Source: Lingula anatina
Lineage: Eukaryota > Animalia > Brachiopoda
Assembly: GCA_051362555.1 (NCBI GenBank)
Contig: CM120641.1
Span: 21,018,001-21,082,000 of the forward strand
Length of the DNA: 64,000 bases
Direction: 5' to 3'
A program made the translations under genes and the position numbers. The notes beneath the pieces are model-generated. The model did not search any database, was not told where the DNA came from, and worked only from the letters and a program-made list of their open reading frames with translations. Shown here one piece after another: positions 26,124-39,002 of the stretch. Each line of letters begins with the position of its first letter. Positions within the stretch are counted from its first letter, which is position 1.

Positions 26124-26454
26124 AGTAATTATTTGACATTACAAAAGAAGTGAGTGAATTACAAATATGCAAATAAGTCACAACATAAATCCAAGTAATC
26201 AAATAACCAAAATCAAAATAAGATACAATTTAAACATGTTACAACCCCCTATGTTGCACAATATATTGGTTTTAAAAAACAACAGGACAAGCCAATGTCT
26301 TAAGTGAAAACTTACCAAATATGTTAATTTTCAAACTCAACCAGCCTTTTCACCAAACAAAACTTTCCAGCCAATTTTGAGTAAATGAAAATTTGTTTTG
26401 GCAGTTGTATAAATACATGAGCAAAAAAAAAAATTCCTTGAAAATGCTGATTCT

Positions 26455-26651
26455 TTAGGGTGATTCTTCCTGGCGGGGAGTCTCACTAGATTACTGTCAG
26501 ATAATCCGGCATAAATGTCCATCCCGCCCACTACCAGCTGTAAGGGGGTAATTAACTTTCTTGCCTGCTCGGCTGACAGCTATTTAGCGTGAATCCCCAA
26601 GGAGTAAGGTCAATCTAAAGTAGATCGATCTAATCTCTGGGAATGGGGTCT
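26455..26651. mobile_element. MITE, inverted copy of the 38789-39002 family (left end degraded)
   Basis: Reverse-complement match over about 190 bp, including gtaagggggtaattaacttt, gctgacagctatttagcgtgaa and tagatcgatctaatct. Confidence 0.8.
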
Positions 26652-27379: not shown

Positions 27380-27983
27380 AAAGATATTGTTTGTGTGCTA
27401 GTTTTAAGCGCCTCCTGTGCCAGATGGGCTATATCCTCCTTAGAGAAGTGAGATTGTCTATATATCCAGTCTGAATCAGGGCCAAGAAATATGTCAGGCA
27501 TATCTATTGTACACATCTATTGTAAAAAGCACTGAGACATAGTGGAAGCCGGTGTATATAAGAACCAGACTTCAGGTTAAATTAACTTTTTTCCAAACAA
27601 GGTCACTCAAAAAATTGAAGAAAAAAGTTGGTGTGGCAGTTATGGGGTGAAAGTCCCAAAATTACATGCAAAAAAGCCAATTATTTTACAAAAATAATGA
27701 GAGCATGCTGATTTTTTAACTCAGACTTCATTTTTACTTTAACAAGGATACCTATTAAATTTGAAGTAAAGCAAAAATACGGTAATGGGGTGAATGTTGC
27801 CAAAATGCATGCAAAAAAAAATGTCATACTAATAAATAAAAACAAAACCTCAGCATAAATCTAAAGTAAAACAAAAAAAAAAAAAGATTGGTTGTATTTT
27901 ATGAACAAATGTGTGAGACATCAACACAGACAGCTACTGCACTGAACATAGACACAGGTAATCAGAACATATACAGACACTTA

Positions 27984-28174
27984 GAGCACATTCTCAACGA
28001 ATTAAGCCAGGCTTTACAAAGCCGGTGACCTAAAAATGGCGGATGTACATGAAAGAAAAACCGCCTAATCTTTTAATAGTCTCTCCGCCTCCCAACACGT
28101 CGTCCCTGCGTTGTACAGTAATTAAATCGCGTCTCCGTTCGCAAAGTCTGGCTTAATTCGTTGAGAATGCGCTC
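27984..28174. mobile_element. PIF/Harbinger-like MITE
   Basis: TIR gagc(a/g)cattctcaacgaattaagccag, TTA on both sides. Confidence 0.9.
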
Positions 28175-28177
28175 TTA

Positions 28178-28479
28178 GGCCGCATTCACATCGAGTTGAG
28201 CCATGGCTCTACAAAGCCACAACCTAAATATGGCGGACGTACATGAAAGGAAAACCGCCTAATCTTTTAATAGTCTCTCCACCTCTCACACACCTCCCCA
28301 TGTGTCATCCCAATGGAGCCGAGATTTAATGACTGTACCCCCGCAGGGACGACGTATGGGGAGGCGTGTGAGAGATGGAGAGACTATTAAAAGATTAGGC
28401 AGTTTTCCTTTCATGTACATCCGCCATATTTAGGTAGTGGCTTTGTAGAGCCATGGCTCAACTCGATGTGAATGTGGCC
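28178..28479. mobile_element. PIF/Harbinger-like MITE, almost entirely palindromic
   Basis: Arms of about 130 bp starting ggcc(g/a)cattcacatcgagttgagccatggctctacaaagcc; TTA on both sides. Confidence 0.92.
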
Positions 28480-28545
28480 TTATAAAGATCAATGTCAAAC
28501 TTCTCCCTTATCAAAATAATTATCTTAATCATGACACTGAATATA

Positions 28546-29330: not shown

Positions 29331-29566
29331 CTTAAACCACGGCTAGCACATAGAACAAAAGACTTGGCCGTGCTGTATTCGACATACAAGCACATCATGT
29401 ACAAGTGCGTTCCACGGTATGTTGCACTTCCGTTACTCCATAGGGTAGTAGCCAATCAGAGGCCGTGGTTTAAGCCAGATACAACACTTGTCACCAAGCT
29501 GTACGTGAAAATTACTTGCCTGCAGCTCGTACTATTTCACATACCGCTCGGCAACTCGTATTGTAT
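29331..29566. repeat. Double-hairpin non-coding repeat interrupted at its right end by the retrotransposon
   Basis: Perfect 13-bp inverted repeat cttaaaccacggc (29331-29343 / 29462-29474), then a 31-bp imperfect inverted repeat (29480-29510 / 29535-29565, 23 of 31 matching). Confidence 0.7.
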
Positions 29567-29776
29567 GTACCCTTTCCCTTTGGGAATGGTATTTAAAACC
29601 ACCACTAGAGGGACGCCTAGGCTGTGGGCTCGGGATTGGTCAGCCAGCTCACGTGGCGCATTCAAAATAATTGGCAGTTAGAGCCTGGCAGCCGTTAAAG
29701 CTGGACAGCGTGTAAGGGCGCTCGAGCCCATTTTGCTTCAATTAAAAGCGGCTTAAGCATAAGCGTAGAAGATTTT
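29567..29776 (+). repeat. Split direct repeat A1
   Basis: gtaccctttccc...gtagaagatttt, identical to 33836-34045. Confidence 0.97.
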
Positions 29777-29796
29777 TTGTTCTTTTCTCCCTGACA

Positions 29797-30906
29797 ATGG
29801 CTGAAGAATTCCAGTCTTGGGTGGAGGCTAACGAGCTCTCGGAAGACACGGTAGAAATCTTAAAGGATGCAGGATTCTTCTCACTCAGGAGTTGCAAGAA
29901 ACTCACAGAGCCACTCATTCAAAGACATTTCAGTAAATCTCTACCGCTGGCTCAGATCCTCCTTCTCCAAGATGCGGTGCTTACCCTACAACAAAAACAT
30001 AGTGCTCAGCCACAGAACAACCAGAGTCCAGCTACGTCTAACAGTGTGTCTGCTGCAACCTCTACTCCCGAAACTGGAGACAAGAAAACCCAAGACGAGG
30101 CCCCAGCCATCTTGCCAGGGACATCCGGGACCCCTAATATGGCGGCCCCCAGCGCGCAAACTGAAACAGGAAACACCGGGGACCTCGATTACACCAGGTT
30201 ATGCCAACTACTAGACATTGGGAACGGGAATGGGAATCAACCAAACACAGTTCATCAGAGAGAGCACGACGGTAAGGGGATTTTTGATCCTTTTTCAACT
30301 CCTGATAGACAAAGAAAACTTAACAAGCATCGCGACATACGTAGCTATGTAATGTTTGCAGACAAATTTGAAGCGAAAAGTGACACACCAGTCCGTATTG
30401 GCGATTTACAACTTTCCCTCTCCGACAGAAAACTTCCCCTGGAGCGCATTTCCCCACTGCAATACACAGAAGCGTCGATGAAAATATTAAGGGAAATGGT
30501 GGCCGACGACGGCGCGGACATTCAAACAGTCATGGACTACACCAGCTACGTGACAAAAGTGGCATGCATGGGTCAATCTTTTAATTGGCAATCAGTCTTA
30601 CGCTTCGACGCAGAGTATAGGAAATCTCAGAGCGAGATGGGATTTCCATGGGGAACCGACAGCCCCTTTCTCATGCAGGTGTTGTTAAAACCGAATTCAA
30701 CCCAACCAACAACCAGAGGGAAACAAACAAAATTGGACACAGCGACGGGTCGACCCATTTGTATGAAATTTAACGGTCGCCAGGGCTGCTCTTTCCCGAA
30801 CTGCCGTTATGCTCACGCGTGTGTAGCCTGTTCCAGTACTACTCATGGGGAATACACGCACAAGCAGCAAGGGACCAGTCCCACAGCAAGAAATCCTTCG
30901 CATTGA
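29797..30906 (+). CDS. Gag-like ORF1 (369 aa) with C-terminal Cys/His zinc finger
   Basis: Good Kozak context acaATGG; WQSVLRFDAEYRK..W motif and CMKFNGRQGCSFPNCRYAHACVACSSTTH, typical of DIRS/Ngaro Gag; helical SAM-like N terminus (by eye). Confidence 0.9.
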   Translation: MAEEFQSWVEANELSEDTVEILKDAGFFSLRSCKKLTEPLIQRHFSKSLPLAQILLLQDAVLTLQQKHSAQPQNNQSPATSNSVSAATSTPETGDKKTQDEAPAILPGTSGTPNMAAPSAQTETGNTGDLDYTRLCQLLDIGNGNGNQPNTVHQREHDGKGIFDPFSTPDRQRKLNKHRDIRSYVMFADKFEAKSDTPVRIGDLQLSLSDRKLPLERISPLQYTEASMKILREMVADDGADIQTVMDYTSYVTKVACMGQSFNWQSVLRFDAEYRKSQSEMGFPWGTDSPFLMQVLLKPNSTQPTTRGKQTKLDTATGRPICMKFNGRQGCSFPNCRYAHACVACSSTTHGEYTHKQQGTSPTARNPSH

Positions 30907-32538
30907 CAAACGCCCGCCGCAAAAGAATCTCCGCTGCACAAAAACATTGAAAAATGGGAAAAGGAACTACAAGGAGATACAGACTATGCTTTTATAATTA
31001 ATGGTATTCGGGAGGGCTTCCGAATAGTCGACGATTTAGATCTGGATCGCATCACGAGAACTGAAGTAGAAAACAGTAGATCCGCCACTTGCGAAGCTTT
31101 CAAGCATAAAGTTGAGACTCAAATAAAAACAGAAATAGAGGAGGGTCACTATATTGAACCAGAACTCCAGCCTACGATAATTAGTGCAATTTCCGCAGTG
31201 CCAAAACCTGACGGCGGCATCCGTCTTATTCATGATTACAGCAGACCTGAAGGGGCAGCAGTAAACGATTACGCAACAAAACAAACATTTCGATACGAGA
31301 CTATACGGTCGGCACTGGATAAGATTAAACCAGGATATTTTCTCAGCAAAGTTGACCTCCACTCAGCATATAGAACTGTCGCGTTACACCCTTCCCAGTT
31401 AACCCTTACTGGGCTTAAATGGAACTTTGCTGGTTCAACTCAGCCAAGGACTTTAGTGGACACGAGACTCCCATTCGGGGCCCGCAAAAGCCCCGAAATT
31501 TTTCACCGGTTAACACAAGCGGTAAAGCGGATGATGGAGAAACGAGGCTTCCACGTCGCAGTTTATTTAGATGACTTTTTGGTTATAGGAGAGACATTTG
31601 AACGATGCAAGCAGGCTTATAGCACATTAATCAATCTTTTAAGACTCCTGGGTTTTGGCATCAACTGGAAAAAAGTCTGTGACCCAACGACTCGCCTAAC
31701 GTTTCTAGGCATCGTCATAGATACTGTTGAAGGCGTACTCTCTTTAGAGGAACAAAAAGTTCGCGACTTACTCCGCTTGATCCAAACATTTCAAAGCCGC
31801 GTGCGCGCCAGCAGACGTCAGCTTGAATCCCTGGCCGGGAAGTTAGTCTGGGCATCGAACGTCATCCCATGGGGTAGAACACACGTGCGAAATATATTTA
31901 ACTCCATAGCTTCACTGAAAAGAGCCAGTCATAAGTGCAAGCTAAACCCATTACGTAAAGACCTCCTTTGGTGGAGCAAGTGGCTCATCACGAGAAACAA
32001 TACAAAACTCATATGGGACGCGCGACCGATTCAACAGGTGTATACCGACTCCAGCATCACAGCAGGTGGAGCGTTCTACTGCGGAGATTGGTTTTACACT
32101 AACTGGATACAGGACGCTCCTCACCAGTTAGGGGGTGAACACATTAATGTCAAGGAATTAGCATCCATCGTCCTGGCTGCGTACAGGTGGTCCCCGCTGT
32201 GGAAGGCACAACGCGTCATTGTTTACACTGATAGTGAAGTGGCAATGAACATTTTAAATAAAGGGGCTTCGCCAAACACCGCCTGCAACAACCTTCTTAA
32301 GGAATTATCTCTCCTAGCGCTGAAATATGACTTTTCAATTTATGCGATCCATATCGCCGGGGAAGAAAATAAAATGGCCGATTCCGTGTCACGAATGCAT
32401 GAGCCAGAACATTGCTCTCTTTTCCTCGAATTAGTCCATCACTGGTATTTAAGCTTACACAGACAGCCGCCAGTGTATTTTCTGCAAGACCATATGACTA
32501 ATTCCTCTTTTTCTTTTCTTTATCCCAGGCTCCGATAG
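30907..32538 (+). CDS. Reverse transcriptase / RNase H (543 codons, no initiator ATG, same frame as gag)
   Basis: Frame is open from the codon after the gag TGA: QTPAAK..WEKEL..FIINGIREGFRI..AVPKPDGGIRLIHDYS..KVDLHSAYR..LPFG..YLDDF..FLG; RNase H VYTDSS, HINVKEL, YTDS, HIAGEENKMADSVSR. Confidence 0.93.
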   Translation, partial: QTPAAKESPLHKNIEKWEKELQGDTDYAFIINGIREGFRIVDDLDLDRITRTEVENSRSATCEAFKHKVETQIKTEIEEGHYIEPELQPTIISAISAVPKPDGGIRLIHDYSRPEGAAVNDYATKQTFRYETIRSALDKIKPGYFLSKVDLHSAYRTVALHPSQLTLTGLKWNFAGSTQPRTLVDTRLPFGARKSPEIFHRLTQAVKRMMEKRGFHVAVYLDDFLVIGETFERCKQAYSTLINLLRLLGFGINWKKVCDPTTRLTFLGIVIDTVEGVLSLEEQKVRDLLRLIQTFQSRVRASRRQLESLAGKLVWASNVIPWGRTHVRNIFNSIASLKRASHKCKLNPLRKDLLWWSKWLITRNNTKLIWDARPIQQVYTDSSITAGGAFYCGDWFYTNWIQDAPHQLGGEHINVKELASIVLAAYRWSPLWKAQRVIVYTDSEVAMNILNKGASPNTACNNLLKELSLLALKYDFSIYAIHIAGEENKMADSVSRMHEPEHCSLFLELVHHWYLSLHRQPPVYFLQDHMTNSSFSFLYPRLR

Positions 32539-33496
32539 ACTGAGACAATAACTAGATAATGAAGTGAACTTCTGGAGAGCTCAACTTTTCTCGGCCTCTG
32601 CTAAATCAACTTATAGATCACATCTAAGAGCTTATATCAAGTTCTGTGAGGAAATTAACTGTAAACCGATTCCTATATCCCCCACCAACATCTGCAGATA
32701 CGCCGCTTACCGGGCACGATCGTGCGCTTTCTCATCTCTTCGGCAGTACCTAAATATCGTCCGGATCATCCACACGGATTTCGGACTTCCTAACCCTCTG
32801 TGTTCGTGGGAGCTGAAGACGACTCTAGGTGGTATAAAGAGACACAAAGGAGATCCGGGCTCTCAGAAAGCACCCATCCTACCACCACAGCTTTTAAACC
32901 TACGATCATTCCTCAACCTGAACGATTTAGAACAAGCACAGACGTGGGCAGCTTGTCTGATCGCTTTCTTTGGAATGCTCAGAGTTAGCAATATTACGGC
33001 CCGGTCTCAGACAGATAGCGGCCTATCTATATGTCGCCGCGACTTGACATTTACAAAACGTGGATGCACCCTAAGAGTAACCAAATCGAAAAACAATCAG
33101 TACGGCCAGAGAACCCATATCGTTACACTCCCCTTTCGTCACGGCAGCCCTTTATGCCCCACAACAGCGCTGACAAATTTTCTGAAGATGTCCATGGACG
33201 TCCCGGAATCTGCGCCGCTCCTTGCCACTTCTTACAACGGAGAGACCACTCTCCTCACATCGGCAGGCTTTCGTCAAAAACTTGCACGGTCACTTCGAGG
33301 GATCGGACTTTCCACCGCGACGTACAATACTCACAGTCTCCGCAGGGGAGGAGCTACGTGGCTTCTTTCTATCGGTACTCCTTTAGCGATGGTGAAGGCC
33401 ATGGGAGACTGGTCTAGTGACGCGGTATTCCAATACATCAAACCCTCGGCGGATATGAAATACGATGTAATGGTGGGAGCGCTGAAGAAAGTTTGA
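32529..33496 (+). CDS. Tyrosine recombinase (phage-integrase family); no ATG, in-frame TAA at 32549-32551
   Basis: Catalytic set intact: FFGMLRVSN (R), KSKNNQ (K), HSLRRGGA (HxxR), GDWSS (W), FQYI (Y). Preceded by a strong splice acceptor ending at 32528. Confidence 0.92.
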
Positions 33497-33654
33497 ACTT
33501 ATAGTTAAATTATGAAAAACTTAAAGTAGTGGACTGGAAATTAACAACTTGTGACTGCCCCCAAAGACGAGGTCCACTGTTATATGTCTAGATGGCAGTT
33601 TTTAAGTGCAATTACGTCTATTTTCATTTTCACTCACCTACTCATACTCTGGGT

Positions 33655-33835
33655 TGGGAATTTTGAACAGCTGCAATTAGTAATATTGCTACCTGTATCT
33701 AAGGGTTGCAACTCATTAACATACGGGTTGATGTACTGTGTTGAAGTAGTTAACGTTTACTGTAGTTATGTAATTTTATGTAAACTTTTATGTAGTTTAA
33801 TAAACTTTTAAGCCCGATAGTGGTTCTGGTTTTAA
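33655..33835 (+). repeat. Split direct repeat B1 (AATAAA at 33799-33804)
   Basis: tgggaattttgaacag...ggttctggttttaa, identical to 34154-34334. Confidence 0.97.
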
Positions 33836-34045
33836 GTACCCTTTCCCTTTGGGAATGGTATTTAAAACCACCACTAGAGGGACGCCTAGGCTGTGGGCTC
33901 GGGATTGGTCAGCCAGCTCACGTGGCGCATTCAAAATAATTGGCAGTTAGAGCCTGGCAGCCGTTAAAGCTGGACAGCGTGTAAGGGCGCTCGAGCCCAT
34001 TTTGCTTCAATTAAAAGCGGCTTAAGCATAAGCGTAGAAGATTTT
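33836..34045 (+). repeat. Split direct repeat A2, abutting B1
   Basis: Identical to 29567-29776; followed by the pyrimidine motif cccaccctcccgtccctc. Confidence 0.97.
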
Positions 34046-34153
34046 CCCACCCTCCCGTCCCTCATATGGGCGGAAGGCGCATCTTACATTTGCATTGTAC
34101 ACATTTTGCGTACATGATCTTCATTTAATTTTTAAACATTTGCGCTTAGTAAA

Positions 34154-34334
34154 TGGGAATTTTGAACAGCTGCAATTAGTAATATTGCTACCTGTATCTA
34201 AGGGTTGCAACTCATTAACATACGGGTTGATGTACTGTGTTGAAGTAGTTAACGTTTACTGTAGTTATGTAATTTTATGTAAACTTTTATGTAGTTTAAT
34301 AAACTTTTAAGCCCGATAGTGGTTCTGGTTTTAA
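34154..34334 (+). repeat. Split direct repeat B2 (element 3' end; AATAAA at 34298-34303)
   Basis: Identical to 33655-33835. Confidence 0.97.
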
Positions 34335-38788: not shown

Positions 38789-39002
38789 CACCCCATTTCC
38801 ATAGATTAGATCGACCTACTTTAGATCGACCTAACTCCCTGGGGGTTCACGCTAAATAGCTGTCAGCCGCGCGGACACAAAAGTTAATTACCCCCTTACA
38901 GCTTGTAGTAGGCGGGACGGACTTTAAGTCGGATTATCTGAAATTAATCTAGTGAGACTCTCCGCGGGGATAGATCGATCTAAAATCTATGGAAATAGAG
39001 CC
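38789..39002. mobile_element. PIF/Harbinger-like MITE
   Basis: Imperfect TIRs (atttccatagatt.agatcga / tcgatctaaaatctatggaaat), TTA on both sides; inverted copy at 26455-26651. Confidence 0.85.

Follow-up and report, generated by a model that had tools for sequence, protein, structure and literature searches.

Conserved splice signals predict a Gag–tyrosine recombinase fusion in an Ngaro-type retrotransposon of Lingula anatina

The window analysed here, a stretch of 64,000 nucleotides (nt) from Lingula anatina (GenBank assembly GCA_051362555.1, contig CM120641.1, positions 21,018,001 to 21,082,000 of the forward strand), carries one full copy of an Ngaro-type retrotransposon at 29567–34334. 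The tyrosine recombinase (YR) of this element is very probably made from a spliced RNA in which the first 158 codons of gag are joined to an ATG-less YR frame. Judged by sequence comparison, the matching splice sites are a real, family-wide feature, chance being excluded by the recurrence of the sites and of their phases in distant relatives; that the RNA is spliced in vivo is what we infer from them. The open reading frame (ORF), splice sites and other features concerned are the following.

29797..30906, + strand: gag ORF, 369 amino acids (aa), with a sterile alpha motif (SAM) domain, a low-complexity linker, a core and a CCCH-like finger; TGA stop
30269..30277, + strand: splice donor ACG/GTAAGG, phase 1, at the linker/core boundary of gag; conserved in relatives
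30272..32528, + strand: predicted GT-AG intron, 2257 nt, spanning the Gag core plus almost the whole of pol
32495..32528, + strand: branch-like TGACTAAT (itself at 32495–32502), pyrimidine tract and acceptor CAG
32529..33496, + strand: predicted exon 2, coding for the tyrosine recombinase; residues R144, H261, R264 and Y295
32549..32551, + strand: TAA in the reading frame of exon 2; seems to be private to the window copy
32553..32555, + strand: second phase-1 AG directly after the TAA, lacking a pyrimidine tract (7/20 pyrimidines)
32975..32977, + strand: first ATG of the YR frame (M142), two codons ahead of the catalytic R144

The donor, GAGCACGACG/GTAAGG at 30271/30272, is the sole GT(A/G)AG inside gag (three such sites occur across 29500–33600) and is in phase 1, because 475 coding nt, counted from the gag ATG at 29797, precede it. 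The acceptor CAG ends at 32528, behind a tract with 19 pyrimidines in 20 positions; it requires phase 1, because it is located 2 nt before the YR frame, which is open from 32552 to 33496 on the 3' side of the sequence for reverse transcriptase (RT) plus RNase H (RH). It is the strongest among 12 YAG sites in 32300–32800, and its score (10.5) is the highest of the 61 loci compared below. The features of a U2-type intron, a GT donor, a pyrimidine tract, a YAG acceptor and matching phases, are thus all present. The window element also has a branch-like motif, one that is only weakly enriched in the relatives (25/54 vs 230/682 controls). An earlier note on this DNA, made by a model from the letters alone, had described this donor, acceptor, pair of phases, intron of 2257 nt and first YR-frame ATG, and all of its coordinates are borne out. 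The ATG at 32975 was rejected as the start of YR: it stands two codons before R144, and seven of the nine RNA reads that cover it show another letter.

Conservation of both sites and of their phase in related elements was a check that the earlier note had proposed, and the result supports it, with 54 of 61 acceptors and 24 of 29 donors in agreement. An alignment of 46 YR proteins was used to fetch the best 80 of 393 metagenome contig loci; with the window these made 81, from which 11 without a YR start were dropped, 70 being kept with 150 nt of upstream sequence, and the removal of nine near-duplicates left 61 loci (median pairwise YR identity 35%). The best AG within −75 to +12 nt of the YR start is in phase 1 in those 54 loci, in phase 2 in four and in phase 0 in three, an excess of phase 1 with a binomial p of 5e-19. 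The median acceptor score is 5.9, compared with −0.2 in upstream (521 windows) and 1.2 in downstream (523 windows) controls, in which the phases are evenly split. Among loci with less than 50% identity a phase-1 acceptor is found in 33 of 38. The phase-1 acceptors have C at −3 in 51/54 and T at −5 and −6 in 40/54 and 41/54, respectively, these positions themselves entering the score. Phase 1 prevails in every frame relation of YR to Pol (6/7, 17/19 and 25/26), and since it is constant across them it is not a by-product of RNase H coding.

The donor was compared among 30 loci that have an upstream ORF; 29 were left once L048, whose upstream ORF is not Gag-like, had been dropped. In 24 of the 29 the strongest donor anywhere in gag is in phase 1 and 20–130 codons before the core, whereas 500 synonymous shuffles, which leave the protein unchanged, give 7.8 ± 2.3 such loci (maximum 15). 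The residue pair encoded at the donor varies (GK 15, SK 3, GT 3, others 8, including GE, GM and GR) and the GTRAG-like text is kept. Codon choice points the same way: linker GK pairs use GGT in 18/26 cases vs 30/117 elsewhere (p 4e-5). The distance from donor to acceptor is 2173–2727 nt across the 29 gag-bearing loci, and the spliced frame stays open for more than 200 codons past the acceptor in 24 of them; the other five are the window copy, three loci where something is amiss with the chosen acceptor or with the copy, and one that stays open for 121 codons.

Predicted proteins of other animals lend support. RefSeq XP_066298120.1 (Branchiostoma lanceolatum; P0041 in our set), 449 aa, has the Gag SAM (residues 3–72, E 2e-18 with a profile built from gag ORFs only) and YR (from residue 128) and lacks the Gag core; a pairwise BLASTP of Gag against it is not significant, the common SAM being detected by the Gag-built profile only. 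In two oyster (Saccostrea) models, RefSeq XP_062586634.1 and XP_062595112.1, YR is preceded by about 125 additional residues. P0063, an unspliced gene call, is 90% identical to XP_062586634.1, and the match begins exactly past a hydrophobic run; this run is what an acceptor looks like when translated, and the two proteins diverge exactly there. We infer that the Saccostrea N-terminal extension is Gag.

Several observations weigh against the splice. The splice-site weights are approximate, and those for the acceptor take no account of the first base of the exon. The best acceptor is not in phase 1 in 7/61 loci, and the best donor is outside the linker or the phase in 5/29. Donor phase alone is weak evidence (phase 1 in 26/30 loci vs 19.8 in codon shuffles, 4/500 of which reach 26), single-locus donor scores are unexceptional (synonymous-shuffle p 0.07–0.84), and the linker window of 20–130 codons was picked after the data had been seen, the same window being applied to the shuffles. 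The RefSeq entries are predicted models. No protein with both SAM and YR is present among 89 phmmer hits of Gag 1–158 (SAM and the Gag core occur together in 41 of the 89) or among the 15 that the SAM alignment yields; most of the proteins in these two sets look like genomic gene calls. Longer YR fusions (551–2000 aa) were searched for and none was found either, which is weak evidence by the search tool's own caveat.

RNA reads bear on the splice as well. They came from seven raw-read runs with the same species label (X1–X9 without X5 and X6), of which 6–30% each was read, giving 15–69 placed reads per run with a listing threshold of three reads per junction. No splice junction is listed in these thinly covered runs, so that the search for the joint proposed in the earlier note came back empty. 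In X7 and X9 unspliced reads run through the acceptor, as those of genomic RNA would, and lend splicing no support; their listed differences affect neither the CTAAT core nor the tract of pyrimidines. An indirect hint in favour of splicing comes from X2: depth on the majority strand is 0.08 up to 32537 and 7.09 from 32538 on, 10 letters precede the step (32528–32537), and an isolated 20–21 letters fall in the donor bin, with zero partly placed reads. A single junction read that stayed under the listing threshold would give this pattern, though the figures are calculated from binned depth and no junction was observed as such.

Another objection, from the window copy itself, is the TAA at 32549–32551, which closes the spliced frame after six further codons. 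It is the asterisk in the translation SDRLRQ*LDNEV of the earlier note, where it was written but not weighed. The relatives have a sense codon at the homologous position, and 12 of the 14 RNA reads over 32549 differ at the first letter, two being unresolved (reads per run: X1 1, X2 5, X7 6 counted once, X9 2). The stop is therefore probably private to the window copy, which, as its sequence reads, cannot make the fusion via the main acceptor and is defective there. The second AG, ending at 32555, was rejected as the acceptor of the family: it has no pyrimidine tract and is lost in 7/8 reads of divergent copies (X7, X9), though it is kept in 6/6 reads in X2. Of the spliced Gag–YR protein of about 480 codons that the earlier note had proposed, the general scheme is strengthened by conservation, by the failure of frameshifting as an explanation and by two RefSeq models; the absence of a listed RNA junction and the TAA at 32549 in the window copy count against it.

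Any other account has to deal with the same pair of sites. For Ngaro, Poulter and Butler (2015) proposed a programmed ribosomal frameshift from pol, which would yield Gag-Pol-YR; the sentence of theirs quoted in PMC13003380 has the YR ORF overlapping RT/RH in the −1 frame, probably via programmed frameshifts, and in an excerpt of PMC3783388 the YR of fungal Ngaro may be in frame or shifted. Of 52 loci for which the end of pol is available, 42 do have Pol and YR overlapping. The frame relation varies over the 52 loci, however: YR is −1 relative to pol in 26, +1 in 19 (three without overlap), as in the window element, and in the same frame in seven. An in-register slippery heptamer (X XXY YYZ) is found in 0/26 of the −1 Pol/YR overlaps vs 5/7 of the −1 Gag/Pol overlaps, and because the latter score positive the test can detect real sites. 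Frameshifting also leaves the conservation of acceptor and donor unexplained, and we consider it highly improbable as the route to YR. Six loci (L038, L039, L054, L063, L064 and L075) have YR behind the pol stop without a change of frame, and their phase-1 acceptor lies 16–55 nt past that stop.

A real acceptor might also be used with another donor, or YR might have a short transcript of its own with a non-AUG or nearby AUG start, in either case without Gag. A donor-like GTAAGG does lie at 29712, inside repeat A and upstream of the gag ATG, and an in-frame ATG upstream of YR, which likewise speaks against the fusion, is present in 17/61 loci (six of them just past the acceptor) and absent in 44/61. 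A splice from 29712 to 32529 would, however, leave no ATG ahead of M142 of YR, the donor in the gag linker keeps its position, its phase and its codon choice among relatives, and the amphioxus model includes the Gag SAM, which together make such a route very unlikely. There is as little to be said for the idea that both sites are by-products, without splicing, of Gly-Lys codons in gag and of a T-rich spacer between ORFs. Gly codons easily yield phase-1 donors, GK is the commonest pre-core pair in 32/43 close Gag proteins and could be a protein motif, and zero junctions are listed in RNA; but shuffles that keep the protein lose the signal, the linker GK pairs are biased to GGT, the acceptor phase is fixed despite varying YR/Pol frames, and the Gag/Pol boundary has no comparable acceptor (median score 0.8), all of which makes a coding by-product hardly credible.

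Under the spliced Gag–YR scheme a single ATG, that of gag, would serve three proteins. Gag would be translated from unspliced RNA. Gag-Pol would probably arise by readthrough of a single TGA, with a −1 frameshift instead in certain relatives. Gag(N)-YR would come from the splice, which would remove the Gag core and pol and leave SAM and linker on YR. The window copy would have to rely for the fusion on other copies, or else on the weak AG just past its TAA. The remaining features of the element are as follows.

29567..29776, + strand: split direct repeat A1 (repeat family D1), 5' end of the element; 0 mismatches vs A2 over 210 nt
29797..30009, + strand: SAM domain, common to Gag and the predicted Gag-YR
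30904..30909, + strand: single TGA (TGA CAA) between gag and pol, which are in the same frame; candidate readthrough site
30907..32538, + strand: pol ORF (RT and RNase H), in the gag frame, without an ATG ahead of RT
33655..33835, + strand: split direct repeat B1; 0 mismatches vs B2 over 181 nt; AATAAA at 33799
33836..34045, + strand: split direct repeat A2, directly abutting B1
34154..34334, + strand: split direct repeat B2, 3' end of the element; AATAAA at 34298

The first ATG of pol lies 111 codons inside RT, so that RT has none ahead of it, and the one stop between gag and pol is an in-frame TGA-C; on these grounds we take pol of the window element to be reached, probably, by TGA readthrough. 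Gag and Pol are separated by one in-frame stop in 16/29 loci (TGA-C in 11 of the 16, TGA-CTAG in three), and −1 overlaps have the slippery site A AAA AAC in 5/7; readthrough and frameshift, to go by these sequences, seem to replace each other at this junction within the family. In L039 gag and pol form one ORF. A three-acceptor model, with an acceptor in front of pol, was tried and dropped, there being no acceptor signal at the Gag/Pol boundary: only 1/29 loci scores 6 or more there, and that site is the acceptor for YR in a locus whose gag and pol are fused.

The N-terminal domain of Gag was described as SAM-like in the earlier note, and an AlphaFold2 (AF2) fold, Foldseek and profile matches agree. 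Gag 1–71 is predicted as a five-helix fold (pLDDT 93.4), whose top Foldseek matches are Eph SAM domains (probability 0.99, TM 0.6–0.7, E 0.18 or worse); profiles match solved SAMs of the Eph type at E 3e-5. A Gag SAM is found in 18/29 gags. Pfam recognizes SAM_1 in 4/18 and SAM_2 in 3/18 members (best E 1e-4). The 11/29 gags without SAM mostly keep the donor (9/11 have a phase-1 GT scoring more than 1 within the linker window), so the conserved thing is the fusion and not SAM. SAM domains commonly self-associate, which makes loading of YR into the particle plausible; a homodimer prediction for this SAM scored 0.00 and speaks neither for nor against it. The Gag N-terminus may, we suggest tentatively, serve as a tag by which YR is delivered to Gag particles or to its target; as ORF1 has been linked to target choice in Cafeteria, a role in targeting would be an equal candidate beside particle loading. 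As a separate observation, the Gag SAM matches the N-terminal SAM of AIG1/GIMAP GTPases (P0116 and P0187; profile E ~1e-15), which might reflect domain exchange between the element and host immune GTPases.

The repeat order A1-[ORFs]-B1A2-B2 is the split direct repeat layout, and because the A and B pairs are mismatch-free over 210 and 181 nt the copy must be young; blastn finds no second copy within the window. Pfam matches in pol are RVT_1 (E 1.4e-17) and RNase_H (E 0.005). YR, with its catalytic R-H-R-Y set present, is located after RT/RH. No methyltransferase domain follows RNase H in Pfam matches at E 0.1, and pol stops about 45 codons past RNase H. By its repeats, its ORF order and the lack of a methyltransferase the sequence is that of an Ngaro-like element, in agreement with excerpts of PMC6681497 and PMC7192593, where YR retrotransposons of this kind (DIRS order) have gag, RT/RNase H and YR in that order, A1-B1A2-B2 repeats and no methyltransferase. 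DIRS-like and PAT-like assignments were rejected, as the element is without the inverted terminal repeats and internal complementary region of DIRS and the methyltransferase of DIRS and PAT; a VIPER-like one was rejected because that order, in the excerpt of PMC6681497, places the YR ORF before RT/RH. No relatives were found among viral contigs.

The route proposed in print for Ngaro-like elements is a frameshift into YR, whereas the data for the window element point to a Gag(N)-YR splice. How the ATG-less YR is translated in elements of DIRS order has so far been a guess, that of frameshifting, and a conserved splice would replace it. The true recombinase would then be redefined as having an N-terminal arm derived from Gag, a point of importance for annotation, expression and structure work, and the splicing step would be a possible point of host regulation. 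In the Ty1/copia element EVD (PMC5580714) host splicing likewise sets a protein ratio and is conserved across the family; there the spliced RNA yields Gag alone, whereas that of the window element would yield the integrating enzyme as a fusion.

The env of retroviruses and gypsy and the pol of foamy viruses are made from spliced subgenomic RNA, with at most a few Gag codons kept. These cases resemble the present one in that a downstream ORF is reached by splicing away gag-pol sequence; they differ in that the Ngaro-like loci would keep 100–320 Gag codons, with a folded domain, on the enzyme. The literature searched, which besides the papers named here included passages of PMC9341512, PMC9210276 and PMC6431247, contained no description of a Gag–YR splice, and a prior mention is possible. 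Goodwin and Poulter reportedly mentioned spliceosomal introns in some YR elements in 2004.

In Cafeteria, elements of the same Ngaro type have an ORF1 that appears to determine integration-site specificity (PMC8547959); the excerpt of that paper names no mechanism and leaves splicing unmentioned. A Gag(N)-YR fusion would supply a mechanism for this reported link between ORF1 and target choice. It is conceivable, at somewhat less than even chances, that animal Ngaro elements at large make YR only as spliced Gag(N)-YR, with pol inside an ancient intron; an exchangeable module at the N terminus, SAM in one clade and different domains in others, would then act as a loading or targeting arm, and host control of splicing would switch integration on and off.

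Other repeats surround the element. Directly on its 5' side another repeat (29400–29566) has many loose-ended RNA reads in X7 and X8, possibly a target preference. Nested inverted and direct repeats at 27980–28480 resemble a miniature inverted-repeat transposable element (arms 135 and 67 nt, 91–93% matched), and an inverted repeat pair about 12 kb apart (26454–26649 and 38790–38984) encloses the element. The segment 52001–54000 has raised GC (0.46) and a strong AT skew (0.28), resembling the pol region of the element.

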